Source: an uncultured Gemmatimonadales bacterium
GTDB taxonomy: Bacteria > Gemmatimonadota > Gemmatimonadetes > Longimicrobiales > RSA9
DNA length: 64,000 bases
Direction of reading: 5' to 3'
NCBI GenBank assembly: GCA_963798085.1
Contig: CAWCRS010000007.1
Span: forward strand, 704,001 to 768,000
A program made the translations under genes and the position numbers. Positions 41,905-58,795 of the stretch are shown one piece after another (within the stretch, counting starts at the first letter, position 1; every line of letters begins with the position of its first letter). The notes beneath the pieces are model-generated. The model was given only the letters and a program-made list of their open reading frames with translations, had not been told where the DNA came from and ran no database searches.

Positions 41905-44736
41905 TCAGTTCTCCATGCGCAATGCCCGCACCGGGTCCACGCGCGTGGCACGCCTCGCCGTCAGCACGGCCGCGAACAGCACGGTCAGCGCGAGCAGCAG
42001 CACGGCGGCAGCCAGCAAGGGGACATTCGTCGGACTCACCTCGAAAAGCAGGCGACGCAGCGCCCGCGTGGCCAGCAGCGCACCCGCCAGCCCCGCGGCC
42101 AGGCCGGCGAGGGCGACGCGCATCCCGCCGCCCACCACTTCGCGCGCCACGACCAGCGGCGAAGCACCCAGTGACACGCGCACGCCGATCTCGCGCGTGC
42201 GCTGCGCCACACTCCAGGACATGAGTCCCCACGCGCCCGCGCTGCTGAGCACGAGCGCGAGCAGCGCAAAGAAGCCTACTAACAGCGTGTTGACGCGCGC
42301 CGGCGCCAGTGCCGCAGCCTTGAGCTGGTCCATGATCGCGACGCGGCCGATCACCAGTTCCGGGCGGAACGCGTGAATCGCGGCACGCACGGCCTCCACC
42401 TGCGCCCGCGCGTTGCCCTGCGTGCGCACCACGACCTGCGGGACCTCCAGCGGCGATTGCAGCGTGTGCAGGTACACCTCCGGATCAGGCGCATCCTTGA
42501 GGCTGGCGTAGCGCGTGCCACCCACAACGCCAGTGATGGTAATCCAGGTGTCGCCGCCCAGGCGGATGCGCTGGCCCACTGGATTCTGGCCGGGGAAGAA
42601 GCGATCCGCCAGCGGCCCGTTGATCAGGACCACCGGATCCGCGCCCGCCCGGTCATCCGGAGTGAACATGCGGCCGCTCAGCAAAGGGATGCGCATGGCC
42701 GCGAAATAGCCCGCACTCGCCCTGCGCAGGTTGATCTCGGGCAGCTCGGCCGGCGCGTGCGGTTGCCCCTCGATCTCGAGCTTCGTTGTGATGTTGCTGG
42801 CACCACCGAGCGGCAGGCGTGAAATCTCGCCCGCCGCGATCACGCCGGGCAACGCGGTCAGCCGCGCATGGAGCTGCGGCATGAGGGCAATGCGCTCGGC
42901 CGGATCGCGCGGCAGGCCCGAGATATCGAACGCCAGCGCCTGCGAAGTATCGAACCCCGGATTCACGGCTTGCAGGTTGGCGAAGCTCTTCGCCAGCAGC
43001 AGCGCGCCCGCGGCCACCATGACGGCCAGTGCCACCTCGAACGCGACCAGCGCATTGCGCAGCGACGCCCGCCCCGCGCTCGTCCGACCGGCCGCGCGCA
43101 GCACGGCGGCCGGCGCCGTCCGCAGGGACTGCAGCAGGGGCGCCAGCCCCGCGAACAGGCCTGTCAGCAGCGCGAGCAGCAGTGCGAAGCCGAACACCAC
43201 GGTATCCACGCGGATCTCGTTCCGGCGAGGCAGGTCGGCGGGGAGGAGTGCGACGAGCGCCCGCACGCCCCACCACGCCAGCAGCGCGCCCAGCGCGCCG
43301 CCCAGCAGCGCGAGCAGCAGGCTCTCCGCCAGCGAGGCGCGCGCCAGCCGCGTGCGCGAAGCGCCCAGCGCCGCGCACACCGCCATGTCGCCGCGGCGGG
43401 CGTCGCCGCGCAGCAACAGCAGGTTAGCGACATTGGCGCAGGCAATGAGCAGCACCAGCCCGACCGCGCCGAAGAGCACGCTCAGTGCGGGCCGCACCGG
43501 GCCGACCCTGTCGTCGCGCAGTGGCACGACACGCACGCCGATCCCTTTCATCCGATCAGGATACGCCTGCGCCAGCCTTGCCGCGATCGCGCTCGCCTGC
43601 GCCCTCGCCTCGGTCAGCGTGCGGCCGGGCGCGATGTGCGCGACCAGCTCGAACAGCCGCACCTGCCTGTGCCCCGTCAGGTAGTAGCTGTTCCGCGCCA
43701 GCGGCAACCACACTTCCGCGTCCTCCTCCCAGCGGAACCCCGCGGGCAATACGCCGATCACCGTGACCGCACCTTCTTCGTCCAGCTGCATGGTGCTGCC
43801 GATGACGGCCGGCGAAGCACCGAACCGCCGCTGCCAGAGCGCCGTGCTGATCAGCACGACCGGCGGTGCGTCGGGTTTGTCATCGGCTGCCGTGAAGCTC
43901 CGGCCGATGACAGGCTTCGCGCCCAGCATGGGCAGGAACCCCGCAGAGGCGTAATTGCCGTGCACACGCTCCGGCTCCTGGTCGCCGCGGATCGTCAGGT
44001 TCCAGCGCGGAGTGACGCCGCCCGCCGCGTCCATGGTGGTGAGGTCGTGCACGTAGTCGGCGTACGTGTCGGGCGAGTGCGGGTCGCGCGGGCTGCCGCT
44101 CATCGTGTTGTCGCCCCACACCACCACCAGCCGGTCCGCATCCGCGTAGGGCAGCGAGCGCAGTAACACGGAGTTCACCACACTGAAGATCGCCGTGCTG
44201 GCGCCCAGCCCCAGCATCAGTGTGAGCAGTGCCAGCAGAGTGAAGCCGGGCCGCCTGCGCAGGCCCCGCCATGCGAACCGGAAATCACGGGCCACGTCGT
44301 TCACGCGCCACACTCCTTTCACGAAGGCCATCGACCCCCACAGCGCGCCGCGCAGGGCGGCGGCCGCATGGCGAACACGCGGCGCGAAACGGATGCGGGC
44401 ACACTCAATGACGAGCCCCATGGCACGAAGGGAAAAGCCCGCGGCCGCCAGCAGGCGAGCGGGCCATGCCGGGCGCGCCGCGCGCTGGGCGAGATGGGCC
44501 GCCAGCGCATCCTGGAACGCGGGCTCGAACCACGCTTCGCGCTGCTCCGCGGGCAGCAGTCGGGCCAGCCGTCGCGCCAGTGCGCCCGGCGCGCGTCCGC
44601 TCACCACGTACCCGCCCCAGCGCCAGAATGCGCTTCGCCATGGACCGGTTGACGAGCACGACAGGCGTGCGTAAAACACGAGTCCGCACGGGCACGGTTG
44701 CGGGCGGCAACAGCTCACGACACGACAGCCGTTCAT
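41905..44736 (-). CDS. ADOP-type duplicated ABC permease (start may be GTG at 44604/44607)
   Basis: IFSVVNSVLLRSLPY, LLIACANVANLLL, REIGVRVSLGA, RRATRVDP; ATG 44736 overlaps the PadR stop. Confidence 0.9.
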   Translation of the reverse strand: MNGCRVVSCCRPQPCPCGLVFYARLSCSSTGPWRSAFWRWGGYVVSGRAPGALARRLARLLPAEQREAWFEPAFQDALAAHLAQRAARPAWPARLLAAAGFSLRAMGLVIECARIRFAPRVRHAAAALRGALWGSMAFVKGVWRVNDVARDFRFAWRGLRRRPGFTLLALLTLMLGLGASTAIFSVVNSVLLRSLPYADADRLVVVWGDNTMSGSPRDPHSPDTYADYVHDLTTMDAAGGVTPRWNLTIRGDQEPERVHGNYASAGFLPMLGAKPVIGRSFTAADDKPDAPPVVLISTALWQRRFGASPAVIGSTMQLDEEGAVTVIGVLPAGFRWEEDAEVWLPLARNSYYLTGHRQVRLFELVAHIAPGRTLTEARAQASAIAARLAQAYPDRMKGIGVRVVPLRDDRVGPVRPALSVLFGAVGLVLLIACANVANLLLLRGDARRGDMAVCAALGASRTRLARASLAESLLLALLGGALGALLAWWGVRALVALLPADLPRRNEIRVDTVVFGFALLLALLTGLFAGLAPLLQSLRTAPAAVLRAAGRTSAGRASLRNALVAFEVALAVMVAAGALLLAKSFANLQAVNPGFDTSQALAFDISGLPRDPAERIALMPQLHARLTALPGVIAAGEISRLPLGGASNITTKLEIEGQPHAPAELPEINLRRASAGYFAAMRIPLLSGRMFTPDDRAGADPVVLINGPLADRFFPGQNPVGQRIRLGGDTWITITGVVGGTRYASLKDAPDPEVYLHTLQSPLEVPQVVVRTQGNARAQVEAVRAAIHAFRPELVIGRVAIMDQLKAAALAPARVNTLLVGFFALLALVLSSAGAWGLMSWSVAQRTREIGVRVSLGASPLVVAREVVGGGMRVALAGLAAGLAGALLATRALRRLLFEVSPTNVPLLAAAVLLLALTVLFAAVLTARRATRVDPVRALRMEN

Positions 44737-45059
44737 GCGGGCGCCAGCCCTTCATCGCCTTCCGCGGCGGTGATGGCGCTCACATAGAACTCGCGGCACG
44801 CCCGCCATGCGCGGCCGCCGTCCGCCGTGAGATGGTAGTTGCGCTCCTTGATGATCTGGCCGTCCACCACGTCCTGTGTGTACCAGCCTTTCACCAGGCC
44901 GGCACTCTCCAGTCGCGACATCATCTGGTAGAACGCCGGCCCCGACTGGCGCACGCGGTAGCGTTTCAGCCCGGCGCGCAGTTCTCTGCCGGCGCGGTCG
45001 CCCGCCAGCAGCGCGCCCAGCACCACGAACTGCAGATGACTCAGTTCCGGCAGCTTCAT
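44733..45059 (-). CDS. PadR family transcriptional regulator
   Basis: LSHLQFVVLGAL, FYQMMSRLESAGLV, YHLTADG; GACGT-T-ACGTC palindrome upstream at 45114-45124. Confidence 0.85.
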   Translation of the reverse strand: MKLPELSHLQFVVLGALLAGDRAGRELRAGLKRYRVRQSGPAFYQMMSRLESAGLVKGWYTQDVVDGQIIKERNYHLTADGGRAWRACREFYVSAITAAEGDEGLAPA

Positions 45060-45207
45060 GTCCGGCTCCAGGAAAGCGGCAGCGTGGGGCATGCGGCCCG
45101 ACACACATAATGCGACGTTACGTCACTGCGCGCTATGCTAGTCGGCCGGTGCGCGACCCGCACACAGCCGCGGGATGGAAGCGGACGGACGCGGGCCGGA
45201 GGGAACG

Positions 45208-45236
45208 AAAACGGGGACGGCAGCACCGCCCCCGTT
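45208..45236 (-). terminator. Rho-independent terminator candidate downstream of the third permease
   Basis: Minus strand reads AACGGGGGCGG-TGCTG-CCGTCCCCGTT ending in a short T run. Confidence 0.55.
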
Positions 45237-45370
45237 GCACCGCCGGAGTCTGCGTGGGCCGGTGAAGGGTGACCCAGCTACCGGGTGTAATCGGCCGCAG
45301 CGGCAGCCGCCCAATGGCGTTGCACTGCCTCGAAAGAGCGCTGCGGTTCTGCGTCGGCGCGCTTGCCGGA

Positions 45371-48176
45371 TCACTCCTGGCGCAGCGCGAGGACCGGGTC
45401 CAGTCGTGCGGCGCGCAGGGCCGGGAGCAGCGAGGCCAGACCCGCGACCAGCAGGAAGAGGATCGTGATCGCGCTGTACGTGAGCGGGTCGGTGGCGCTC
45501 ACACCCACCAGCAGGCTGCGCATGACACGCGTGAGTGCCACGGCCCCCAGCAGACCCACGCCGGTGCCCAGCAGACTCAGCGTCAGGCCCTGTCCGACAA
45601 TGAGCCGCAGGATGCTCGACTCGGGCGCGCCGAAGGCCATGCGCACGCCGATCTCCGAGGTGCGCTGCTTCACCACGTAGGCCAGCACGCCATACAGGCC
45701 AATGGCGGCCAGCACCAGCGCCAGCACGGCGAACGTGGCAATGAGCGTGAGCGCGAAGCGCGTGGGCGCCATGGCGAGATTCACCAGGTCCGTGAGCGGC
45801 GCGACATCGGCGATAGGCAGCAGCGGGTCGACTTCCCTGACCTGCTGTTTGGCCGCCTGCACGAGACGCAGCGGATCGCCTGTGGTGCGCACGATCCAGC
45901 GCAGGGCGCCGAAGCTGCCCGCGTAGCCCGGGGTGAAGTAGATGGCCTCCGGCCCTTCGCTGGTGAGCGAGCGCTGCAGCTGGTGCCGCACCACGCCAAT
46001 GATCTGTACGGGCACAGCCTCCGGCGTAGTGACGCGGATGAGGATCTGCTGGCCCACGGCGGATTGTCCGTGAAACGCGATCTTTGCCAGCTTCTCATCC
46101 ACCACCACGACCGCCGCCGCCGTCTGCTCATCCGCTTCCGTGAAGGTGCGTCCTTCCACCAGCGGCGTGCGCAGCGCCTCGAAATAGCCCGGCTTCACGG
46201 CGCGGTAGTCCGCCTGGTGGAAGGCCTGCGGATCGGTGGCTGCCTCGAGCGTGCCCCAGCGGCCATTGAAGTACTGGCCATCGAGCGGCAGCGGGTTGGC
46301 GGCGGTGACTGCCGTGACGCCGGGCAGGCCGGCCAGCCGGTCGTGCACCCGGGTGAAGAAGGCGGCGCGTACAGCGGGATCGCGATACCGCGGGCCCGCC
46401 GGCGCGGCGTTCAACGTGAGTACGCCCTGCGCATCGAAACCCGGGTCGACCCGCTGCAACGCCACGAACGTGCGCATCATGAGACCGGCGCCAATCAGCA
46501 GCACGAGCGAGAGCGCGACCTCAGCCACGATCACGCTGCTGCGCAGCAGGCGGTTGGCGGAGAGGCCGGGCGTGCGCCCGCCTTCGCGCAGCACACCCGC
46601 CACATCCGCCCGGGAAGCGCGCAGCGCGGGCGCCGCGCCGAACAGTGCTGCGCAGGCGAGCGCCGCTAACCCGGTGTATGCAAGTACCCAGCCGTCCAGG
46701 CCGATCGCGCCCACGCGCGGCAGCTGCTCCGGCTGCAGCACGCGCAGCAGCTTCACGCCGGCCAGCGCCAGCCCGATGCCCAGCAGGGAACCCGCAGCGC
46801 TGAGCAGCACGCTTTCCACGAGCATCTGCCGGATCAGGCGCCAGCGGCGCCCGCCCACCGCCGCGCGCACCGCCAGCTCGCGCTCCCGCGCGCTGGAACG
46901 CACCAGCAGGAGATTGGCCACGTTGGCGCACGCAATGAGCAGCACGAACACCACCGAGCCCATGAGCGCCCAGAGGATGGGCCGGACGGGGGCCACCAGG
47001 TCCTCGTGCATGGGAATCACATCCAGCGCCAGCCCCGCCGTTTCCTTGATGGTGAAACGCTGGCGCAGGTCGGCGGCAATGCGATCCATGTCCTGCTGCG
47101 CACGCGGCACGGTGGCGCCGGGCCGGAGCCGCCCGATCACGCGCAAGAACACGTTGTTACGGTTGGCGTTCACGTAGTCGATGCGAGCCGCCGTCCACAT
47201 GTCGACGTGCGACTGCATCCCGGCGGCTGCGGGCATGAGCAGCTCGAAGTCGGGCGGCGCCACGCCCACTACCTCGGCAGGACCGCTGCCCAGGTCGACG
47301 ATCCTGCCGATCACGTCGCTGCGCCCGCCAAAGCGCGAGCGCCAGAACCCATTGTCCAGGATCACCGCCGTGTTGAGCCGCGCCGGCGCAGACGCTGGGG
47401 CAGCGGCAGCGCCCTGGGTCGGCCGCGGCGGCACCACGCCGTCCGCGTCGTTGAAGGCGCGGCCCAGCACCGGGCGCACGCCCAGCACCGAGAAGAAGTT
47501 GGTGGTGACACCACCTGCGCGGATCTGTGCCGGCTCGCCGTCACTCGTCAGCGCGTCCGCGTACGTCCACGCACCCGCGAAATCCTGGAACTGCGTGGAC
47601 ATTTGCCGATAGTCCAGGAAGTCGGGGGGCGACGTGGGGAAGTACTTCACGCCCCGTCGAGTCAGCTCGGCCCACACCAGGGTCAGCTGCTGCGGATCCG
47701 CGTACGGCAGCGGCCGCAGCAGCACGGCGCGCACCACACTGAAGATGGCCGCGTTGGCGCCAATGCCCAGGCCGATGGTGAGCACGGCCGCAATCGTGAA
47801 ACCCGGCGCGCGCAGCAGCGAGCGCAGACCGTGTCGCACATCTCTCGCCAGCCCATTCATGATCATCATTCCGCGAAACGAGGATCCGCTTGCATCGTCC
47901 GCAAAGCGCGGGTGATGCCCCGATCTGCCCTGCCATCGCTCCACCACGACGCCGCGCAGCAGGTCCAGCAGCGTGCCCGCCCAGAGGACCGTCAGCGCAC
48001 GCACGCCGTTGCGCTCCATGGCATCCTGTGCGCGCTGCCCGAACACGTGCGTCATTCTCGCGGCCGTAGCGCTCGCGCAGCGCGGCCGGATACACGCGGA
48101 GCAGCATTGCGTACACGCGCTCCGAAAACCGCACCGCGCGCGTGCGACTGGGCATGCGACCCGGCCGTCCGCTCAT
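45371..48176 (-). CDS. ADOP-type duplicated ABC permease with +1 frameshift at ~48056
   Basis: N-terminal LLRVYPAALRERYGRE joins MTHVFGQRA when one A is removed (GAG A ATG); the body has all ADOP hallmarks. Confidence 0.88.
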
Positions 48177-48180
48177 TGCC

Positions 48181-48582
48181 TCACACCGCCCGCGCCCGGC
48201 CCGCGAGCAGCTTGCGCGACCTCGCCGTCGCCACTCTCGCCGCCAGCCGCGACGCCTCCGCTTCCGCTACCGTGCGACCGAGCGGCGTCAGCGCGTAGTA
48301 ACGCCGGCGCGCATCGTCGGCTTCATCCGGCCGCTCGTCCCGCTCCTCGATGAGTCCCTGGTCCACCATGCGGAAAATTGCGCGATACAACGTGCCCGCG
48401 TGCAGCGTGACCGCGCCATCCGTGCGCTCTTCAATGTCGCGCAGGATCGCGTAGCCATGGCGAGGCCCATCGGCCAGGCTGAGCAGCAGCTCGAACCCGG
48501 CTTCCGTCAGCGGCAGGAACGAATCAATGGGCGGCGTCGTCGCCTTCTTCGTAGCAGTGCGTGCGTTCTTTCTCGGTGTCAT
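48181..48582 (-). CDS. PadR family transcriptional regulator
   Basis: LPLTEAGFELLLSL..GPRHGYAI, GTLYRAI, RRRYYALTPLG; imperfect CTATGT...ACATAG inverted repeat at 48600-48635. Confidence 0.93.
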   Translation of the reverse strand: MTPRKNARTATKKATTPPIDSFLPLTEAGFELLLSLADGPRHGYAILRDIEERTDGAVTLHAGTLYRAIFRMVDQGLIEERDERPDEADDARRRYYALTPLGRTVAEAEASRLAARVATARSRKLLAGRARAV

Positions 48583-48711
48583 GGGCGCGTCTCCCGGGTC
48601 TATGTTCCCGGTACCTATACGCCCTGGGCACATAGTGGACAAGCGTGCGGGGACGAGTGCGAGGGGCAGTGTGATGACCGGCGCGCGACTGCGCGCCGGC
48701 GTTGGCGAGGA

Positions 48712-49143
48712 TCAGGCTGCGGCGGGTTCCCGGTAGAGCCAGGCGCCCAGCATGCCGGCGACGATCAGCTCACCCAGCGCCCAGAAAAGCCCCACAGTGA
48801 GCGCGTGGATGGGGAACGCGCCCATGGCCAGGAAGTTGAGTGCGCCAAGCCCGCTCCAGAGCAGCCACGTGACGAGGGCCGCTGTGAAAGCGGTCTTGGG
48901 TCCCGGTCCGAAGCGCGGGCGGAAGGCGGCGTACAGCCAGACCACGAGGATGCCGATGGCGAAGCCCATGAGGAGATACAACGTCAAGGCGACGGTCATG
49001 TCGGGGTGCAGGTTGAGACGCTGCATGGCGGCGTCGAAGTCGGCATCGATGACGTAGCCGTTGAGGATGAACTCGCTGACGTTGATAAGCACGCCGGCCG
49101 CGATACCACCGAGCAGGACTCTCCCGACGTTCACGCGCGACAT
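48712..49143 (-). CDS. Small membrane protein (about four TM helices)
   Basis: GGAGGG RBS; hydrophobic segments; RPRFGPGPKTA loop. Confidence 0.75.
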   Translation of the reverse strand: MSRVNVGRVLLGGIAAGVLINVSEFILNGYVIDADFDAAMQRLNLHPDMTVALTLYLLMGFAIGILVVWLYAAFRPRFGPGPKTAFTAALVTWLLWSGLGALNFLAMGAFPIHALTVGLFWALGELIVAGMLGAWLYREPAAA

Positions 49144-49250
49144 GTACACCCTCCGTCAGGTGGGGCGGCGCGGCCAGGGGGCGCACGTCGCCTTGGCTTG
49201 CCGACCGCGAAATTGGTGGGGTGCGCAAAGAAAGCGCGTAGCGGCGCCAC

Positions 49251-49342
49251 TGTCAACAACGGCGTCTATTGGCGGGTGCCTGCCAGTGCTCCAGCTGGTG
49301 TCTACAACGGCGTTAGAGGCGGGTGCCTGCCAGCGCTCCGGC
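49251..49342. repeat. Imperfect tandem direct repeat, two copies of ~45 bp (period 48)
   Basis: TGTCAACAACGGCGTCTATTGGCGGGTGCCTGCCAGTGCTCCAGC vs TGTCTACAACGGCGT-TAGAGGCGGGTGCCTGCCAGCGCTCCGGC. Confidence 0.85.
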
Positions 49343-49526
49343 GGTTCCGTGTCTGTGCGGCGAGCGGTGAAATCGGGCAGAATGCCCGATCGCGGTTGCG
49401 ATAGCGGACCGGGCGTGCGACTGTCACAGCCGGCCGGCATCATTACTCCCGGATCACGCATGTGGACCGTACGCGCCACTCCGGTCAGGGTCCACAGGCC
49501 GGCATCGGCAACCGCCCTCAAATGGC

Positions 49527-52500
49527 ATGGCTCGACTTCGTCTGGTTCTGGCAACGGACCCGTGGCTCCTTCTGGAAGACGCGGCGGATGCATTCCTTTC
49601 GCCTGCGCCCGCCTCGCCTGCAGTTCCCTTTCCTTCGCCACCCTTTCTGCTGGCGCTGCGTCAGGGCGGTCTGCGTGACGACCTGATCGCAATGGCGGCT
49701 GCACGCGGGGTGCGCGGCTGGTTCGATCCGCCTCTCTGTCTTTTTTCGCAGCTGCCTGAACTCCTGGGTGTGACGCGCGCCGCGTGCGGCGATTACGAGC
49801 GCCTGGTGCTGCTGGCGAGCGTGCTGCGCAGCGCTGCGCCGCGCGTGTTCTCGCGTCTGTCCCGACCGGACGCGTTCGTGGACGCGCTGGACCGTCTGTT
49901 TGGCGAGCTGGCAGGCGAGGGCGTGACGGCGGACGCGTTGCCGGGCGCACTCGCGCGCGCCGGGCGCGATGCGTTCGAGATCAACCGTGATGCCGACCTC
50001 GCCGCCGCGTACGACGCCTACCTTGCCGCGCTCGCTGCACAGGGTCTCCGTGATGATCGTGCGCGCTGGATCGACGCCGCTGCCGCGGTGCGCAACGATG
50101 CGCCGGGGCTGGCGCGACGACTCGGCCAGCGGCGCGAGCTGCGGCTCTTCGGACTGCAGGATCTGCGCGCCGGCTGGCGCACGCTGCTCGAGGCATTGCG
50201 CGCTTCGCCCGCGCTCGATGCCATCACCGTGCACACGTCCGCGCCGCTGCACACCGACGAAGCGCTGGATGCGGACGTGGTGACGGTGCTGGACGACACG
50301 TCGTCGCTTGCCCGCCGCTTGTTCACTGTTCGTGATGCACCATTTCAGGCGACGACGCCGCGTCTGGAAATCTTCTCCTCGCCGGATGCGGAGCGTGAGG
50401 CGGAGCAGGTGGCCGTGCGCGTGCGCGCGCTGCTCGATGGCGGCGCGCCGCCCGAGCGCATTGCCGTGGTGGCGCGCAGCGCGCGGCCCTGGGTGGACCT
50501 GGTGCTGGACGCGCTGGCCCACTGCGGTGTGTCTGCCACGGCCAGGCGAAGGCACAGCTTCGCCAGCATTCCGGTGGTGCGCTCGGTGCTCTCGCTGTTT
50601 GCCGTGGCCAGAGACGGCTGGCCTCGGCATGGCCTGGTCGAGCTGGCCGAGCAGCCCTACCTCGGCATCGATCTCGACGCGACCGTGCTCAACTACATCG
50701 GCTACCGGCGCCGCGTCGAAGGGCTGGATGACTGGATGGCCGCGCACGAGCGGCTGCTCGCGGAGGTGGAAGCGCGGGAGCGCAAGCATGCAGACGACGA
50801 TGCGGAGCCGGATCGCCGTCGCATGTCACTGCCTCCCGGGTGGCGCGTGCGCCGCGCGGTGGAAGCGTTCCGCCGCTTCGCCGGTTTCGCGCGGCCACTC
50901 GATTCGGCGCGGCCGCTGCACGCGTGGCTGGACTGGCTGCTCGCATTGCTCGGTGCCGATACGCGCGTGGAAGACGATGCGTCGTTGCCCGCGCAGGCGT
51001 GGGATGTGGCGCGCCACGTGTACGACGCGCCCGATGGTTGCGAGGATGTGGTGCGTCTGGACGCTGCCGGATTGCGTGGCGCACAGAGCGTCATTGCCGA
51101 GTGGCGTCGCGCGCTGGAGCGCTGGCGTGACGTGGCCCCACTGAGCGTCGCCGGGTTCGCGGGGCGGCTGCAGTCGATGCTCTCCGGTGATGCGGCGCTG
51201 TGGACGCGGGCGCGGCGCAGCGTGCAGGTGCTGGAGGGACTGGCCGCGGCGCACCGCGCCTTCGATCACGTCTTCCTTGTGGGCATGGCGGGCGGTCGCT
51301 TCCCGCTGCCCATGCCGCGCTCACCGATTCTCGGCGAGATCGAGCGAGCGCGGCTGGCGTCGGTCCTGCCGCTGGACACGAGCGAGCGGTGGGACACGCG
51401 CGAGCGCGAGCTGTTCCGTGTGCTCGTCGCGGGTGCGCGCGCCTCGCTGACCGTGAGCTGGCCACGCCTGGACGAGCGCGGCGGCGAGACCGTGCCATCC
51501 GCATTCCTGGAAGAGCTGCTCGATGTGGCCGGCGCCCTGCCGCTCGATCTTCCCACGCACGAGGTGCGCACGATGGGCGTGCCGCTGATCGCGGACGCGG
51601 CCGCGGTGCCGCTGGCGCTGCACGCGGCGACCATCGAGGGCGAGCGCGCGACCGGGCGGCTCTCGCCCTGGAACGGCCTGATCACAAACACGGCATTACG
51701 GGCGGCGCTGGGCGAGCGGCTGGGACCGGAATACGTGTGGAGTCCCACGCAGCTGGAGAGCTACGCGAAATGTCCGTGGGCCTGGTTTTCCGCCCGCCTG
51801 CTGCACCTGGAGAAGCTGTCGGATCCCGATGTCGACATCGATCCACGCGCCCGCGGCAGCCTTCTGCACGACGCGCTGCGGCGCTTCTTCGACAGCGCCC
51901 GCGAACGCTTCGGCCGGCCGGTGTTCCTGCTGCCCGGGGACCTCGATGCCTGGGCGCGCACACTGCTGCACGAATCGCTGGAAACGGCGCTCGCCGCTGT
52001 GGCCGATGAGGTGTGGCTCGGCCAGCCCGCGCTGCGCCTGACCAAGCGCGCCGAGCTGCGGCGCATGCTCGACCGCTTCCTCGAAGGTGAAGCCGAGTAC
52101 AACGAAAAGCTGCTCGATCGCCCGCACTGGACGTACACGCGCACGTTGCGCATGGCCGCGGCGGCGCACGAGCTGGCCTTCGATGAACTGCGCATCCGGG
52201 CAGGCGGCGAGATGCTCCGTCTGCGCGGCACCATCGATCGCGTGGATGTCAGCTGCGACGACCGGGTCGCGGCGGCCGACTGCGTGGCAGCGATCGACTA
52301 CAAGACGACGAAGTGGTCCACGCCCGGGTCAGGCGAGGGCCTGGCGTGGAGCGACGGTGTCGTGCTCCAGGTGCCACTCTATGCGGAAGCGCTGCTGCAG
52401 CTGCGTCCCGGCTCGCGCGTGGCGAGGGTCGCCTATCGCGCGATCCGCTCGCGCGACCTCGTGCACAAGCTCGATCTGCTCGAAGTCAAAGGCAGCAGGG

Positions 52501-52694
52501 GGCACCTCGAGCTGACGCGGAACACGGAGGGCGAGCAGAAGCTGGAGCGCGCGCTGGACGCGGTGGCGCAGCACGTACGGGCCGCGCGTGCCGGTGAGTT
52601 CCCCGCTGATCCGGCGCCCTCGTGCAAGTGTCCGACGTTCTGTCATGCGTGGGAGATCTGTCGCGTGCGCGGTGGGCCGCAGGCGAAATGGTGA
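49527..52694 (+). CDS. AddB/RexB/AdnA-like subunit: helicase-like body without Walker A + PD-(D/E)XK nuclease with 4-Cys staple
   Basis: REAEQVA, ERIAVV, FDHVFLVGM..GRFP, SPTQLESYAKCP, HELAF, LRGTIDRVD, IDYKT, LQVPLY, C-terminal CPTFCHAWEIC. Confidence 0.85.
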   Translation: MARLRLVLATDPWLLLEDAADAFLSPAPASPAVPFPSPPFLLALRQGGLRDDLIAMAAARGVRGWFDPPLCLFSQLPELLGVTRAACGDYERLVLLASVLRSAAPRVFSRLSRPDAFVDALDRLFGELAGEGVTADALPGALARAGRDAFEINRDADLAAAYDAYLAALAAQGLRDDRARWIDAAAAVRNDAPGLARRLGQRRELRLFGLQDLRAGWRTLLEALRASPALDAITVHTSAPLHTDEALDADVVTVLDDTSSLARRLFTVRDAPFQATTPRLEIFSSPDAEREAEQVAVRVRALLDGGAPPERIAVVARSARPWVDLVLDALAHCGVSATARRRHSFASIPVVRSVLSLFAVARDGWPRHGLVELAEQPYLGIDLDATVLNYIGYRRRVEGLDDWMAAHERLLAEVEARERKHADDDAEPDRRRMSLPPGWRVRRAVEAFRRFAGFARPLDSARPLHAWLDWLLALLGADTRVEDDASLPAQAWDVARHVYDAPDGCEDVVRLDAAGLRGAQSVIAEWRRALERWRDVAPLSVAGFAGRLQSMLSGDAALWTRARRSVQVLEGLAAAHRAFDHVFLVGMAGGRFPLPMPRSPILGEIERARLASVLPLDTSERWDTRERELFRVLVAGARASLTVSWPRLDERGGETVPSAFLEELLDVAGALPLDLPTHEVRTMGVPLIADAAAVPLALHAATIEGERATGRLSPWNGLITNTALRAALGERLGPEYVWSPTQLESYAKCPWAWFSARLLHLEKLSDPDVDIDPRARGSLLHDALRRFFDSARERFGRPVFLLPGDLDAWARTLLHESLETALAAVADEVWLGQPALRLTKRAELRRMLDRFLEGEAEYNEKLLDRPHWTYTRTLRMAAAAHELAFDELRIRAGGEMLRLRGTIDRVDVSCDDRVAAADCVAAIDYKTTKWSTPGSGEGLAWSDGVVLQVPLYAEALLQLRPGSRVARVAYRAIRSRDLVHKLDLLEVKGSRGHLELTRNTEGEQKLERALDAVAQHVRAARAGEFPADPAPSCKCPTFCHAWEICRVRGGPQAKW

Positions 52695-55600
52695 GCGGAA
52701 CGTCCGCGCGCACCGGTGCGGCTGGCGGGTTCCGGCCGCCCACGCCATCGCAATGGGAGGCGATCGCGGCGACCGACGACCACCTGCTGGTCGTCGCCGG
52801 CGCGGGCACTGGCAAGACGCACACGGTCGTCGGTCGCGTGCTCTATCTGCTGGGCGTACCGATCAACGAGCAGACGTACGCGCGGCCTGTCGGCCTGCCG
52901 CAGATCGCGGCCATCACCTACACGAAGGAAGCGGCACGCGACCTGAAGCAGCAGCTGCGCGACGATCTGCGCGCCGCGGGCCGGCGCGAGCTGGCCTGGC
53001 AGGTGGACCTCGCCCGTATCGGCACCATCCATTCGTTCTGCGCCGAGCTGCTGCGCGAGCATGCGCTGCGCGCGGGCGTGGCGCCGGCTGACACCGTACT
53101 GGAAGAGGGCGAAGCACTGGAGCTGGCCACACAAGCAGCGCGCGACGCGCTGGTCGCTGCGCTCGGGCAGGGCGGCATTGCCGGACTGGACGCACTGCTG
53201 GGCGACCGGCGTACCAGTGATATCGACCGCTGGGTGGTCGACCTGATGCGGAAGCGCGATCTGCTGCGCGCGCTGCACGACCGCTGGCGCGACGCCGACG
53301 TCGGCAGTGAAGCCGACGCGCCCACCACCGAGGAGCGCGCGCTGATTCTGCTGGCGAGCGCCGCAGCCGAGCGCTACGACCGCGTGCTGGCCGACAGCGG
53401 CCGCATCGACTACGACCACATGATCCACTGGACCCGCGACCTGCTGCACCGCGACGCGCACGTGCGGGCCGCTCTGCGGCAGCGGCTGCACACGCTGATC
53501 GTGGACGAATTCCAGGACGTGGACCCGATGCAGAAGGAGATCGCCTACGCCATCGGCGCCGTGGGCGAGGCCCGCGCGGACACGCCTCGCCTGATGCTCG
53601 TCGGCGATCCCAAACAGAGCATTTACAGATTCCGCGGCGCGGACGTCAGCTCGTGGAACAGCGTGCAGCGCGATTTCGAGGAGCAGGGCCTGGGCCGGGT
53701 GCTGCCGCTGCGCGAGAATTTCCGCAGCCTGCCACCCATTCTTGCCATGGTGGAAGCGTCGGTAGGCGCCGCCCTCGATCAGCCGATCGATGGCCAGGCA
53801 CTGCGTGACTACGAGGTGCCATTCCTGCCGGTTGCTGCACAGCGTGCGTCAGCGGAAGCGACCGCGGTCGAGTTCCTGCTGGTCCCGGCCAATGCGGCCG
53901 GCAAGAGCCGCCGGGCGGACGACGTACGCGTGGTCGAAGCCCAAGCGATCGCGGAGCGCATGCGGCAGCTGCACGCGGATCGCGTTCGTTTTTCCGACAT
54001 GGCGCTGCTCTTCGCCACGTGGACATCGGTGCAGATCTATCAGGATGCGCTGCGGCGCGTGGGCATTCCCTTCTACACGCTGCGTCGCGACGGCTTCCTC
54101 GACACCCGCGAAGTCCACGATCTGGTGCTGGCCCTGGAAGTCGTGCGCGACCCGACCGACGAGCGCGCGTTGTTCGGCTTCCTGCGCAGCCCGTTCATCG
54201 GTGTCAGCGACGAGACACTGCTGCGCGTGGCCGATCGCAAGCGCCGGCCTTCGTGGCGACACCTGTGCGACGTTGATGCCGACGCCGCCGGCGAGAGCGG
54301 CGCGATGGAAAGCGCGGAAATGGAGCGGCTTGCCTTCGCGCAGCAGCTGCTGGACCGCTACACGCGGTTGCGCGACCGGCTGTCCAGCGCGGAACTGCTC
54401 GACGCGCTGCTGCGCGAGACGGGCTTCCTTGCGCATCTCCAGCTGCGAGGCGAGGCGGGCAGTCAGGCGCTGGCCAACGTGCGGCAATTCATCGGACTGG
54501 CGAGGGCCACGCCCGACGTGAGTGTGGGCGATTTCATCCGCATCCTGCGCGAGCAGCGGGAGCGCGGCGATCGCGTGCCGGAAGCCATACTGTACGCCCG
54601 CGACGACGAGGTCGTCACAATCACGTCGATCCACGTGGCGAAGGGTCTGGAATGGCCGGTCGTGTTCTGGGCGGATCTGTCGCGCGGGCCAGTCACATTC
54701 TCCAGCAAACTCGTGGTTGGTCGCAGCGAAATACGACTGGGCGAGCCCGACATCGACGCGGATGACCAGCCGGATCCGCGCTGGGGCGCGCTGCGCATGA
54801 GCGTGATCGACGAGGAGTACGCAGAACACAAACGCCTGGCTTACGTGGCGGCTACGCGGGCGCGCGACCGCCTCATCCTGTGTGGCATACCGATGGGAGG
54901 CACCGGTAGCGGCAGGGACAAGCCGCCGAGCGACAGACGGCGCGAACCGATCGCGAAGCTGTTCCTGTCGCGTTTCCCGCAGCTGGCGAACGCGCGGTCC
55001 GGTGACCTGGTGGAATTCGCGGGCCGCGATACGGAAGGCGAAGCGCGTGCCCGGAGGCACGCGGCCCTCGTGCACGTGGCGACGCCATCCGAGCCGGCGC
55101 CGGCGTACCGGCCACCCAACCGCCTGTTTGGCCAGACCACGGAGGAAGCGCCGCAGCCCTGGCCCACGCTCGATCCGGCAGCCATCGAATTGCCGCTCGA
55201 ACCCGTCGCGGCCGCTGCGGGTCCGCCCCGCCATTCGGCCACCGAGTTCCTCACCTACACGCGCTGCCCTCGGCGGCACTGGTTCAAGTACGTGGTCGGC
55301 ATTCGTGAGCCGCCGCTGGCCGCTGCCGAGCGAGATGCGCTGATCTCGGCCGTGCAGCGCGGGCAGATCGTGCACGATGTGCTGGAGCGTTTGCGCGAGG
55401 AGGCGGACCTCGACAGCCTGCTCGAGGATGCCATCGGCCGCTGGGACGAGAACGCGCCAGCGCCCGAGTCGGACCGCGGGTCCGCGTATCGGGCGCACCT
55501 GCGGGACGAAGTCAGCCGGGTGGTCGAGCACCCTGACTACATTGAGTTAGCCAGCCGCCCGGGGGCGCGCCACGAGCTGCCCTTTCTGTACGTCGCCGCG

Positions 55601-56446
55601 GATGGCGTGGCGGGGCAGGGCAGCATCGACCTGGCGGTCCCGGACACGGACGCCGCCGGGGCGCCGGGCATGACGCTCCTCGATGTGAAGACCACGCAAT
55701 GCGACGCGGCGGGCGCGCGCCTGAAGGCAGAGCAGTACGCGCCGCAGCGCGACGTGTACGTGACTGCCGCGACGGCAATCGCGGGTCTGCCCGTGCACCG
55801 CTTTGCGTTCCAGTTCACGCGCGCCGCCGTGCAGCTCACGCAGGACATCGACGCGTCGGGCCGCGCCGCCGCCGCAGGGCGCTTCGCGGAAAGCGCGCGT
55901 CAGATTGCAGAAGAGCACGCGCCCTTGACGCGCTTTCCGCAGGAATGCCGCTTCTGCGGTTATCGCAAAGTGCGCCTGTGTCCCGGCGCGCGCTTCGATC
56001 CACCCGGCCTGGATGATCTGTTCGCACGCCTGGCGCGCGATCGCTTCCGTTCCGGCTTCAGCCTGCAGGCCAGGGAGCGCGCGTATCTGCAGACGCATGG
56101 CATCGACAGCGTGCTGGAGCAGGCGAGGCGTTTCGTGCAGCAGCGGCTGGCGCCCGCGTCGCCGGCGCGCGATGGCCGGCAGACGCCCTGGCGAGGGCAC
56201 CCCGTGTTCGTGGCGCAGCACGGAACCGCGACCTGCTGCCGCTCGTGCGTGGAGCGCTGGCACGGGATCAGTCGCGGCGTGGCGCTCACCACGGAACAGC
56301 AGGAGTACGTGCTGCGCGTCATCGAACGCTGGCTGCGCGCGCAGGCGGAGACATCGGCGGGGACTGCCGACGACTCCGCCACGGCAGGCGATGATGCCAC
56401 GCGCGGCAGACGAGCACGCGACGGCTCACAGCTCGAGCTGCTCTAG
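52688..56446 (+). CDS. AddA/AdnB-like UvrD helicase + PD-(D/E)XK nuclease fused to a C-terminal DUF4186-like domain
   Basis: AGAGTGKT, TIHSFC, DEFQD, VGDPKQSIYRFRGAD, NFRS, IHVAKGLE, YVAATRARD; nuclease RCP..ELPF..IDL..DVKT..CRFC; from 56009 LFARLARDRFRS...DGRQTPWRGHPVFVAQHGTATCCRSCVERWHG. Confidence 0.9.
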   Translation: MVSGTSARTGAAGGFRPPTPSQWEAIAATDDHLLVVAGAGTGKTHTVVGRVLYLLGVPINEQTYARPVGLPQIAAITYTKEAARDLKQQLRDDLRAAGRRELAWQVDLARIGTIHSFCAELLREHALRAGVAPADTVLEEGEALELATQAARDALVAALGQGGIAGLDALLGDRRTSDIDRWVVDLMRKRDLLRALHDRWRDADVGSEADAPTTEERALILLASAAAERYDRVLADSGRIDYDHMIHWTRDLLHRDAHVRAALRQRLHTLIVDEFQDVDPMQKEIAYAIGAVGEARADTPRLMLVGDPKQSIYRFRGADVSSWNSVQRDFEEQGLGRVLPLRENFRSLPPILAMVEASVGAALDQPIDGQALRDYEVPFLPVAAQRASAEATAVEFLLVPANAAGKSRRADDVRVVEAQAIAERMRQLHADRVRFSDMALLFATWTSVQIYQDALRRVGIPFYTLRRDGFLDTREVHDLVLALEVVRDPTDERALFGFLRSPFIGVSDETLLRVADRKRRPSWRHLCDVDADAAGESGAMESAEMERLAFAQQLLDRYTRLRDRLSSAELLDALLRETGFLAHLQLRGEAGSQALANVRQFIGLARATPDVSVGDFIRILREQRERGDRVPEAILYARDDEVVTITSIHVAKGLEWPVVFWADLSRGPVTFSSKLVVGRSEIRLGEPDIDADDQPDPRWGALRMSVIDEEYAEHKRLAYVAATRARDRLILCGIPMGGTGSGRDKPPSDRRREPIAKLFLSRFPQLANARSGDLVEFAGRDTEGEARARRHAALVHVATPSEPAPAYRPPNRLFGQTTEEAPQPWPTLDPAAIELPLEPVAAAAGPPRHSATEFLTYTRCPRRHWFKYVVGIREPPLAAAERDALISAVQRGQIVHDVLERLREEADLDSLLEDAIGRWDENAPAPESDRGSAYRAHLRDEVSRVVEHPDYIELASRPGARHELPFLYVAADGVAGQGSIDLAVPDTDAAGAPGMTLLDVKTTQCDAAGARLKAEQYAPQRDVYVTAATAIAGLPVHRFAFQFTRAAVQLTQDIDASGRAAAAGRFAESARQIAEEHAPLTRFPQECRFCGYRKVRLCPGARFDPPGLDDLFARLARDRFRSGFSLQARERAYLQTHGIDSVLEQARRFVQQRLAPASPARDGRQTPWRGHPVFVAQHGTATCCRSCVERWHGISRGVALTTEQQEYVLRVIERWLRAQAETSAGTADDSATAGDDATRGRRARDGSQLELL

Positions 56447-56459
56447 TCCGGAGGCAGAC

Positions 56460-57572
56460 ATGGCAATCACGAAACTGCAGCGCTGGCTCGATCTGGTCGC
56501 ATTTCTCGTGAGCCGGCGCATGCCCGCCACATTCGAGGAGATCATTGAGCACGTGCCGGCGTACAGCGGCGCAGGCTCCGGCGACATGCGCGCCGGCGAG
56601 TCGGTGCGGCGCATGTTCGAGCGTGATAAGGACGAGTTGCGCGCAATGGGCATACCGCTGCAGACAGTGCCGTTCAGCATCGGCTTCGGCAGTGAGGCGA
56701 TCGAAGGCTACGCCATCGACAATCGCGACTTCTACCTGCCGTGGCTGCGTCTGGTCGAGCAGCTCTCGCCCGGAGGTCAGTACGCGGATCGCAACCGTAC
56801 AGGCGAGGTCGAGATCACACCGGCGGAGGCGCCGCTCGTCCTGGAAGCGCTGCGCCGCGTGTCGCAGCTGCCGGCGTCACCGCTGGCCAGAGAGGCGAGG
56901 TCGGCGTTCCGCAAGCTGGCTTTCGATCTCGATCCGGATGCGTTCGCCGCCGACTCGCCGGTGCTGTTCGTCGAGCGACCGGAAGCAGAGGAGCTGGTCG
57001 AACGCCTGCGCATGCTTTCCGATGCGCTGCTCACGCGCAAGCGTGTGGCCTTCACCTATCACGGCATTTACAGAGGCGAAGACACCGATCGCAGCGTGCA
57101 GCCGTACGGCCTGCTGTTCCAGGAAGGCCACTGGTACCTGGTGGCGCACGACGCCGAGCGCGAGGCGGTGCGCGTGTTCCGCGTCGGCCGCATGGACGCA
57201 CTGCGCGTGAATCCGCGCGCTCCACACACGCCCGACTACGAGATACCGGCCGGGTTCAAGCTGGATCCATGGGTGGGCCGCAAGGCATGGGAGCTGGGCG
57301 ATCTCGAGGAGAAGCCGATCGAAGCCGATGTGCGCTTCCGCTTCCCGCGCTCGCTCTGGGCGGAGCGCAACGGACACGGCGCGCTGGTACGCGAGCTGGA
57401 GGGCGGCGACACGGTGCGACGATTCCGTGTCTATCAGGTAGGCGCGTTCCTGCGCTGGCTGCTGGGACTCGGTGGTGAAGCCGATGTGCTCGAGCCGGCC
57501 GAACTGGCGCAGCAGTTCCGCGAGCTGGCTGCGGATGTGGCCCGCATTCACGGTGGAGGCGATGATGCCTGA
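56460..57572 (+). CDS. WYL domain regulator, PafB-like (wHTH-WYL-WCX)
   Basis: RRMFERDKDELRAMGIP (PafB signature), RSVQPYGL..GHWYLVAHD..RVFRVGRM, WCX-like tail; GGAGG RBS. Confidence 0.9.
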   Translation: MAITKLQRWLDLVAFLVSRRMPATFEEIIEHVPAYSGAGSGDMRAGESVRRMFERDKDELRAMGIPLQTVPFSIGFGSEAIEGYAIDNRDFYLPWLRLVEQLSPGGQYADRNRTGEVEITPAEAPLVLEALRRVSQLPASPLAREARSAFRKLAFDLDPDAFAADSPVLFVERPEAEELVERLRMLSDALLTRKRVAFTYHGIYRGEDTDRSVQPYGLLFQEGHWYLVAHDAEREAVRVFRVGRMDALRVNPRAPHTPDYEIPAGFKLDPWVGRKAWELGDLEEKPIEADVRFRFPRSLWAERNGHGALVRELEGGDTVRRFRVYQVGAFLRWLLGLGGEADVLEPAELAQQFRELAADVARIHGGGDDA

Positions 57573-58728
57573 GCCGGCACAGGTTCGCCTCGAACGCCTG
57601 CTGTATCTGCTGCCCGCCGCGGCGCGCGACGGCGGCGCCCGCCTCGATGAGCTGGCGCGCGCGCTGGACGCATCCCCAGCCGATCTGCTGCGCGACATCC
57701 AGGAAGCCACGGCCCGCGCTTTCTACTTGCCGCCCGGCCAGGCCGATTCCATCCAGATCACCATCGAAAAGGATCGCGTGCAGGTCTTTGCCGGGCGCCA
57801 GTTCCAGCGGCCTGTCCGGCTCTCGCAGCGGGAAGCGCTCGCGCTCGGCCTCGGCCTGCGCATCATGGCCGCCGAGCGCGAAGACGCGGCCGGTCGCAAC
57901 ACACTGTTGGCGCTGGCCTCGCGCATGGAGCAGTCGCTGGCCGTGCCCATGGTGCGCGAGGCGCCACGCGCCATGCCCGGCGCCCCCGTCCCGGCCGAAG
58001 AAGCCGCGCCGTACGGCGCAGCCGAAGATCTGGCACCGCCGCCGTCTTTGCAGGCGCCGCGCTTTCCATTTTTCGCCCGTCCCTCGCCGCCGGCCCGCGA
58101 GCGCCAGTCCGCAGCGGCAGGTGGCATCGGCACGCCGCCGCCCATTGTGCTGCACATCGAGCAGGAGCGCGGTCCGGTCAAGGTGGAGCTGGGTGAGGAC
58201 GCGTTCCGCGGCATCATGGCCGACGGCGTGCGCGAGCACCGCCGGGTAACACTGAGTTATCTGAGGCCCGGCGCCCGTGCGCCGGAACCGCGTACGGTCG
58301 AACCGCTGCGCCTGGTCTACGCCAACGGTCGCTGGTACCTTGCGGCGCAACCGGTACCGGGAGACGAGCCGCGCATCTACCGCCTCGACCGCGTGCTCGG
58401 CGCGCGTCTCGAGGCCGAACATTTCGAGCCCGGCCCGATCGACATCAGCAGCTTCATTGATGAGGCCGGCCGCGCGTACAGCGCGCGCGACGCGGTGGTC
58501 GCACAGGTTCGCTACTCGCCTCGCGTCGCCCGCTGGGTCAGCGAGCGCACGCGCCAGGCGGCCTCGCCCGACGGCAGCATCACCGTCGAGCACAGCGTGG
58601 CTGACCCGGACTGGCTGGCGCGCCACGTGCTGCAGTACGGCGCCGACGCCGAAGTTGTCGGGCCGCCGTCACTCCGCGAACACGTCGCATCCATTGCACG
58701 GTCACTCGCATCTCACCGCGGAGATTGA
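57565..58728 (+). CDS. WYL domain regulator, PafC-like (wHTH-WYL-WCX)
   Basis: RLERLLYLLP, RPVRLSQREALAL, RTVEPLRL..GRWYL..RIYRLDRV, WLARHVLQYGADAEVVGPPSLR; overlaps the pafB-like stop. Confidence 0.88.
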   Translation: MPEPAQVRLERLLYLLPAAARDGGARLDELARALDASPADLLRDIQEATARAFYLPPGQADSIQITIEKDRVQVFAGRQFQRPVRLSQREALALGLGLRIMAAEREDAAGRNTLLALASRMEQSLAVPMVREAPRAMPGAPVPAEEAAPYGAAEDLAPPPSLQAPRFPFFARPSPPARERQSAAAGGIGTPPPIVLHIEQERGPVKVELGEDAFRGIMADGVREHRRVTLSYLRPGARAPEPRTVEPLRLVYANGRWYLAAQPVPGDEPRIYRLDRVLGARLEAEHFEPGPIDISSFIDEAGRAYSARDAVVAQVRYSPRVARWVSERTRQAASPDGSITVEHSVADPDWLARHVLQYGADAEVVGPPSLREHVASIARSLASHRGD

Positions 58729-58795
58729 GAAGGGCTCGGAGAACGGAGTTCTTGTTTTGTTGCTTACCGCGGAGAACGGGGAGTTGAAATGCGAA

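Follow-up and report, generated by a model that had tools for sequence, protein, structure and literature searches.

A DUF4186 domain fused to an AddA-like helicase-nuclease that ends in a beta-clamp-binding-like peptide

The locus and the fused gene

The window, as the whole stretch of 64,000 nucleotides analysed here is called, carries a gene pair resembling addB and addA, followed by two regulator genes (Table 1). The second gene of the pair is one open frame with a single stop codon at 56444–56446. Its product matches the Pfam families UvrD-helicase (residues 19–330), UvrD_C (341–731) and PDDEXK_1 (850–1095, 71.8 bits), and then DUF4186 (1109–1216, E 9.3e-45, 151.6 bits, cut-off 25), the last match covering positions 1–108 of the 109 in PF13811. 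An earlier sequence-only reading of this DNA had recognised DUF4186 in the C-terminal part and had proposed such a Pfam scan, which bears the assignment out. The domain starts where that reading placed it, but it does not reach the stop codon; it ends at 56335, and the remaining 36 residues are a tail whose terminal QLELL the reading did not mention.

Table 1. Features of the addAB-like locus, in window coordinates
Feature	Position	Strand	Remarks
AddB-like subunit, 1055 aa	49527..52694	+	no Walker A; C-terminal PD-(D/E)XK nuclease; stop overlaps AddA start
AddA-like helicase-nuclease with DUF4186, 1252 aa	52688..56446	+	start ATG 52688 or GTG 52691
SF1A helicase motor	52742..54880	+	AGAGTGKT, DEFQD, GDPKQSIYRFR, TSIHVAKGLEW and YVAATRARD all found
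RecB-family nuclease	55235..55981	+	D981, D999-V-K1001, Q1020..Y1024; four Cys: C860, C1087, C1090, C1098
Linker PGARFDPPG, nine residues	55982..56008	+	
DUF4186 domain (PF13811; YneG family)	56009..56335	+	all-helical, basic; H1178, C1183, C1184, C1187, H1192
Tail, variable, probably disordered	56336..56428	+	
C-terminal QLELL, beta-clamp-binding-like pentapeptide	56429..56443	+	
WYL-WCX regulator 1 (PafB-like)	56460..57572	+	13 nt past AddA stop, behind GGAGG
HTH_PafC-WYL-WCX regulator 2 (PafC-like)	57562..58728	+	overlaps end of regulator 1

The junction sequence is CRFCGYRKVRLC-PGARFDPPG-LDDLFARL, with the linker directly behind the nuclease Cys cluster, as had been read earlier; other fused proteins have longer, variable linkers. 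The earlier statement that no stop, ribosome-binding site or in-frame ATG separates the two parts also holds. Codons 1096–1116 include no ATG, GTG or TTG, and there is no stop at the junction. Contigs from three soil sequencing runs do not extend over 55912–56118 and bear no information on the junction. The closest in-frame GTG is that of V1095, within the Cys cluster; neither this GTG nor the CTG at 56009 has a purine-rich, Shine-Dalgarno-like stretch ahead of it. The ATG at 56013 is out of frame with the fused protein. GC3 is 0.87 in the DUF4186 part, compared with 0.82–0.87 in the helicase and nuclease parts. The fused gene is the sole copy of DUF4186 in the genome. The five motor motifs of Table 1, which we take to be the named helicase motifs of SF1A enzymes, are intact together with the nuclease motifs, and both sets are near-invariant among 10 aligned proteins. 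In a predicted structure of the nuclease with DUF4186 (15 sequences, pTM 0.53) the Cys loop and the linker have pLDDT values below 50, and the model gives no verdict on the packing of the domains.

The AddB-like protein has a PDDEXK_1 match in Pfam at residues 738–1046 and no UvrD match, and AddB models match it weakly, below the cut-off. Its cysteines (C749 and C1033/1035/1039/1045) resemble an iron staple, with a spacing unlike that of C801/1121/1124/1130 (C..CxxCx5C) in B. subtilis. An AddA-type gene is likewise paired with an AddB-like gene in the genomes labelled G010, G011, G018 and G025. The two regulators are tandem WYL-WCX genes, one with an HTH_PafC match in Pfam, and thus form a PafB/PafC-like pair. 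In G001, another genome with the fusion, such a pair adjoins addB; G010, the third, has one WYL gene at a distance of about 5 kb. The portion of PMC8682763 that deals with mycobacterial adnAB describes it as dependent on PafBC; by analogy, the WYL pair may confer damage inducibility on the fused addA genes. No sigma-70-like promoter was found within 49100–59300.

Upstream of the gene pair, the window contains at 41905–48642 what are presumably two ABC-permease-like genes, each with a PadR-like regulator ahead of it. Downstream, transposase-like frames at 58885–59322 and 62954–64000, which we take to be an IS110-like remnant and IS630-like, respectively, lie on both sides of a stretch of lower GC content (0.50–0.65). 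The ORFs of 227 and 557 residues within that stretch (59843–60526 and 60968–62641) have no match in Pfam or PADLOC.

The helicase-nuclease and the inheritance of its fusion

The features expected of AddA are present. The SF1A helicase motifs are intact, the C-terminal nuclease is of the RecB family (PDDEXK_1 in Pfam; in Foldseek, the best matches of the nuclease model are the AddA chains 4ceh_A and 3u44_A, E about 2e-5), and the neighbouring gene at 49527–52694 encodes an AddB-like protein with a nuclease and no Walker A. The protein misses the NCBIfam equivalog cut-offs for TIGR02785 (228.6 of 707.65 bits) and TIGR02784 (167.6 of 860.75 bits), with scores far under both thresholds; it works like AddA but stands outside the curated equivalogs.

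B. subtilis AddAB (PDB 3U44, 4CEH; TIGR02785/TIGR02773), as presented in the sections of PMC3321194 on its architecture, similarly combines an SF1A motor and a RecB-family nuclease in one subunit, and its coupled genes likewise encode a partner with a second nuclease and no Walker A. In contrast to that enzyme, the motor subunit in the window has four staple-like cysteines besides those of the partner, it adds DUF4186 and a clamp-like tail, and it is a second copy in its genome. Mycobacterial AdnAB shares the two nuclease domains and the association with a PafB/PafC-like WYL pair, but both of its subunits, AdnA included, possess ATPase domains according to the portion of PMC5314763 that treats them. 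The partner in the window lacks both a Walker A and a UvrD match, and because a single subunit thus carries an ATPase domain, the fused enzyme is not AdnAB. Assignment to the Gabija defence system was also rejected: GajB matches are limited to the UvrD part, and the six other proteins scanned have no GajA match.

A second AddAB-like pair is encoded on contig C9 of the same genome (L140, G000:C9:86922-91294) and belongs to a type that is common in the order. Close orthologues (E <1e-60) of the AddA of this common type occur in 37 of 61 genomes, compared with 7 of 61 for the type in the window, and most genomes tested carry just one of the two types. The common AddAB is also present in all three genomes with the fusion and in 1 of 10 unfused genomes tested, these genomes being related and incomplete. 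As the fused genomes also hold the common enzyme, the fused AddAB would fit a specialised second copy.

The fusion is almost certainly real and inherited. When residues 1090–1252 were compared with long proteins, 19 matches were obtained: eight AddA-DUF4186 proteins, the query among them, and 11 RecD2-DUF4186 proteins. One more full-length AddA-DUF4186 protein and four fragments spanning the junction bring the number of fused sequences to 13. Identity to the query is 51–62% (seven proteins aligned with it; nine full or near-full clusters overall). Further proteins with UvrD, PDDEXK and DUF4186, which the sequence-only reading had suggested looking for, exist in 12 other clusters (eight full or near-full, four fragments) and in two other genomes. 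The in-frame junction is the same in all of these, and the clusters come from several public sources.

DUF4186 occurs in 53 of the 301 genomes of the order, in frames longer than 1000 residues in three of them (G000, G001 and G010). This AddA subtype is found in 14 of the 301 and is fused in three of the 14; the unpublished genomes G015, G016, G019 and G038 enter solely as rows in such tallies. The remaining 11 genomes with the subtype have no DUF4186 match: in G002 the contig stops within the gene, and in the other 10 the protein terminates with no such domain. DUF4186 is thus missing from most orthologues and would be an accessory that resection does not need. In the tree of DUF4186 domains, the fused ones form two groups which mirror groups of the AddA tree. 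The best tree implies two changes for the AddA fusion, and a single origin (p-AU 0.51) is neither shown nor rejected. Close to its 5' end the G010 gene is interrupted by a frame break; in G001 the AddA-DUF4186 gene and addB are on separate contigs. The architecture is already in databases, named after its DUF4186 part alone: NCBI nr holds a close relative of 1203 residues (P0291), 'DUF4186 family protein [Longimicrobiales bacterium]'. No publication on an AddA-DUF4186 fusion was found in the mostly open-access literature searched, and the fusion is apparently an undescribed, real and inherited variant of AddAB.

The DUF4186 family and its C-terminal tails

The model of the DUF4186 domain (111 sequences, pLDDT 95.9) consists of six helices. 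All 111 domains share T59, F67, H71, C76, R78 and C80; C77 is kept in 109 and H64 is nearly invariant. The fused domain has all of the family-invariant residues (T1166, F1174, H1178, C1183, R1185 and C1187). Net charge is positive in every one of the 111 domains, with a median pI of 9.7. The His/Cys motif suggests that DUF4186 probably binds a metal, and the basic charge and the conservation fit a metal-stabilised nucleic-acid-binding domain. No sequence relative of DUF4186 was found among solved structures. A Foldseek search of the PDB with the 112-residue domain model gave no match at E 0.001 or better, and the best of 48161 chains in VIA-align reached Z 4.0 (rmsd 3.0, 67 residues aligned; none at Z 5), which proves neither a new fold nor a lack of relatives. 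The ESM Atlas returned DUF4186 clusters or nothing, and no PHROG was found for the domain. The same fold is predicted for an uncharacterised protein of Pithovirus LCPAC001 (A0A481Z275 in BFVD; 241 residues, TM 0.87, 26% identity).

E. coli YneG (PMC2672614, PMC9283627) matches the fused domain over its full length with 56% identity and the same His/Cys motif; it differs in being a stand-alone protein of 119 residues, encoded in the sad-glsB operon, and in having no clamp-like motif at its tail. The parts of Hu et al. 2009 (PMC2672614) that concern yneG place it in a gene neighbourhood with dnaN, dnaB, dnaE, hda and priA, and report lower viability of the deletion on a replication inhibitor. 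The replication link there is a single genomic-context edge, to dnaE (0.82). The gene is additionally in a translation set, and the physical partners given for YneG are RplS, RplQ, RpsJ, YeiT and YciU, with DnaN not among them. The literature searched, some of it in excerpt, mentions DUF4186 in passing; no mechanism for it and no mention of PF13811 was found there.

DUF4186 had been described by the earlier reading as a stand-alone protein. Such forms exist, but they are not exclusive, as several other fusion partners occur. Of 204 longer DUF4186 proteins, the best 120 comprise 87 RecD2 fusions, a large share of them near-identical, 10 AddA fusions and 23 others. Further partners in 48 selected longer proteins are DUF5131 (seven), GNAT (four), DnaJ (two) and RrnaAD (two), with single cases of DinB (P0021), NudC, PIN and ABM. 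Since the domain is also joined to GNAT, DnaJ, NudC, RrnaAD, PIN and ABM, fusion by itself is weak evidence of function. The RecD2-DUF4186 proteins of Lachnospiraceae and Oscillospiraceae (PNH17933.1, MCR5825938.1) resemble the AddA fusion in their C-terminal DUF4186, superfamily 1 helicase and variable linker, whereas their motor is of the SF1B type without a nuclease and a clamp-like motif is present in 1 of 79. Their domains stand apart from the AddA-fused ones in the DUF4186 tree, with weak support. Such proteins are common (P0007, P0011, P0028, P0049, P0088 and others; loci L063, L064, L079, L107, L116 and L118), one of them occurring on 326 contigs, and no publication on them was found. 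The DUF5131-DUF4186 fusion recurs as well (P0117, P0143, P0147, P0173, P0194, P0197 and P0211); in the part of PMC9477430 covering it, DUF5131 is a radical-SAM subgroup whose megacluster includes spore photoproduct lyase.

Twenty loci come from viral collections, and the ORFs of at least 16 of these were examined. At L155:3992-6186 (and the near-identical L157–L159), DUF4186 overlaps recQ at its start, and an exonuclease III-like gene lies close by. At L152:1273-4342, uvsX, a DnaB-like helicase gene and DUF4186 are consecutive, and a stop-start overlap joins the helicase gene to DUF4186; the order and the overlap are the same at L163:2319-5342 in a 735-kb phage (LR756501). The recQ and phage DnaB cases count as one event each, and the RecD2, RecQ and phage cases each come down to few independent events. 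In two other phage loci (L153:3131-5680 and L160:3516-5926) DUF4186 directly follows a DNA methyltransferase gene, and DUF1848 is found slightly downstream.

The neighbourhoods of stand-alone DUF4186 genes, to which the sequence-only reading had pointed as a check on a repair role, show no enrichment of repair genes. After 31 of 80 genome loci had been dropped as redundant in taxon, the remaining 49 yielded 172 heuristic neighbour ORFs. The clear repair genes among these are an AlkD-like gene (16 nt upstream of DUF4186 in L104), an AlkZ-like gene (1.5 kb away in L074), RadC and no others, and there is no separate helicase.

The C-terminal tail of the fused protein is left unstructured by AlphaFold (residues 1225–1252, pLDDT below 50). 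QxxL[LF] closes every one of the 13 fused sequences, in the form QLxL[LF] in 12 and QFELF in one, and the tails before it vary in both length and sequence; versions in orthologues include QLDLF, QLKLF and QLSLF. In the motif section of PMC3919608, the beta-clamp consensus is QL[S/D]LF, with most weight on positions 1, 4 and 5. QLELL agrees with it in Q1, L2, L4, a hydrophobic position 5 and a flexible terminus, and differs in E3 and L5. It is likely that the tail binds the beta clamp; the DnaN of this genome is encoded on contig C3 (G000:C3). Listings of the literature searched showed no clamp motif in AddA and no 'clamp-binding motif' for AddAB, AdnAB or RecBCD.

Similar ends are found on stand-alone DUF4186 proteins. 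DUF4186 representatives at 50% identity were surveyed through the best 150 of 1311: tails of 8–95 residues are present in 101, 42 have shorter ones (almost none) and seven have longer ones. Four of the 101 belong to or are nested in AddA groups and were dropped. QxxLF occurs within the final 25 residues in 21 of the resulting 97, compared with a mean of 0.23 and a maximum of 3 after shuffling and with six hits among 2891 ORFs called heuristically in this genome. Q[LM]xL[FL] is present in 9 of the 97 tails, and the strict QL[SD]LF in three, compared with none of the 2891 control ORFs. For stand-alone tails from the same order, the figure with Q[LIM]x[LMF]x[LFIMV] or Q[LIM]xL[LF] is 21 of 31, compared with 14 of the 2891 controls; the 31 were parsed out of 33 loci, mostly of one genus, the looser patterns were set after the tails had been seen, and the control ORFs are not size-matched small proteins. 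Some of these motifs are hexapeptides such as QIGLDL, a form like that of the clamp-binding QLSLPL of Hda (PMC5397184, in the part on this motif). N-terminal clamp-like motifs are not enriched (3 of 102, compared with a shuffle maximum of 4).

Among nine published unfused orthologues of the AddA, the terminal motif is present in G011 (QLSLF), G073 (QLGLF) and G074 (QLYLL), G144 has QPELPL, and the motif is absent from G018, G025, G075, G077 and G096. The unpublished, unfused G085 protein likewise ends in a clamp-like motif, and this genome supports no other statement here. As QLxL[LF] is carried by unfused proteins of G011, G073 and G074, the tail of the fused protein may be a property of AddA and not of DUF4186, and the survey of both suggests that this AddA subfamily and DUF4186 proteins each tend towards clamp-like tags independently. 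A more distant AddA without DUF4186 (L141:6215-9352 in G012) ends in the clamp-like QTDLF.

A proposed role and the alternatives

On balance, the fused protein and its partner are best regarded as a second-copy AddAB-like resection motor, probably tethered to the clamp, with a basic, probably metal-binding accessory domain. AddAB unwinds DNA from an end, which its two nucleases resect (family knowledge, and the mechanistic part of PMC3321194). By family resemblance, AddA would track 3'-5' along one strand while both nucleases resect the end. The tail peptide would insert into the clamp's hydrophobic cleft, bringing the complex to beta clamps left at stalled or broken forks. DUF4186 would fold round a metal, probably Zn, held by the Cys and His residues of its H..CCRxC..H motif. 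With moderate confidence, the basic domain can be pictured as gripping DNA beside the nuclease exit, where it would bind DNA or a lesion through a metal-stabilised surface. Stand-alone DUF4186 proteins, many with a clamp tag of their own, might do the same job in trans.

A role of DUF4186 in repairing DNA or maintaining forks seems rather probable. The link to repair is drawn from helicase ties of four kinds, namely the AddA and RecD2 fusions and the overlaps with recQ and the phage DnaB gene. The part in DNA repair or processing which the sequence-only reading had deduced from the fusion is supported by the RecD2 fusions, the RecQ and phage DnaB coupling, the enrichment of clamp motifs and the yneG phenotype, a body of support that falls short of proof. 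A bolder proposal can be put forward tentatively: DUF4186/YneG might be a widespread and unrecognised repair module of the replication fork, metal-containing, recognising or processing lesions or forks, and delivered by a clamp tag or by fusion to a helicase (AddA, RecD2) with RecQ and phage DnaB as coupled cases, and in this lineage a second AddAB might have become a clamp-recruited fork-resection machine under WYL control.

The domain could instead be a passenger, a small mobile gene that landed in the linker of a clamp-tagged AddA and was tolerated there, its function unrelated to the helicase. The numerous unrelated partners, the lack of a conserved neighbourhood, the 11 of 14 genomes of the AddA subtype without a DUF4186 match (in one of which the gene runs off its contig) and the tail already present on unfused orthologues would all agree with this. 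All fused copies, however, keep the family motif across AddA identities of 51–62%, stand-alone copies bear clamp-like motifs of their own and the links to other helicases recur, so that such a passenger is unlikely. Far smaller in weight is the idea that an artefact of assembly or frame has joined two genes. The sequence is an assembly and the G010 copy has its frame break, but the identical in-frame junction in two other genomes and 12 other protein clusters means that independent assemblies share it, and an artefact is therefore already refuted, its residual chance being negligible.

Two further accounts concern the biochemistry of the domain, and both are improbable. DUF4186 might be a module for binding nucleic acids in general, chiefly RNA or the ribosome, which many enzymes reuse as a sticky add-on. 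It is basic in 111 of 111 domains and is fused to RrnaAD and PIN, and the yneG passages of PMC2672614 record co-purification of YneG with three ribosomal proteins and its place in the translation set. Its commonest fusions, however, are with DNA helicases and DUF5131. Ribosomal proteins are a frequent background in pull-downs, and we know of no use of clamp-like motifs on the ribosome. A shade less credible is a small lesion-processing enzyme that helicases and the clamp would deliver to damage, such as a metal-thiolate acceptor of alkyl groups by analogy with the N-terminal domain of Ada, which is one. The 30-residue stretch DGxQTPxxGHPxFxAQHxTxxCCRxC is near-invariant, beyond the usual needs of a scaffold, and an AlkD-like gene lies beside the L104 copy and AlkZ near the L074 copy; yet such alkylation neighbours are found in just 2 of 49 loci, and solved structures include no sequence relative.

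The chief value of this AddAB variant is the converging case it makes for DUF4186/YneG as an accessory domain of DNA maintenance, often clamp-tagged, which gives a testable function to a domain whose range spans E. coli and jumbo phages. On the prevailing view AddAB and RecBCD locate DNA ends unaided, and a clamp-tagged AddAB subfamily, if true, would link end resection to the replisome.

Among the unfused relatives, a uracil-DNA glycosylase gene adjoins addA tail to tail in G025 (L136:9576-10247), and in G018 a C-terminus similar to that glycosylase lies beside addA.
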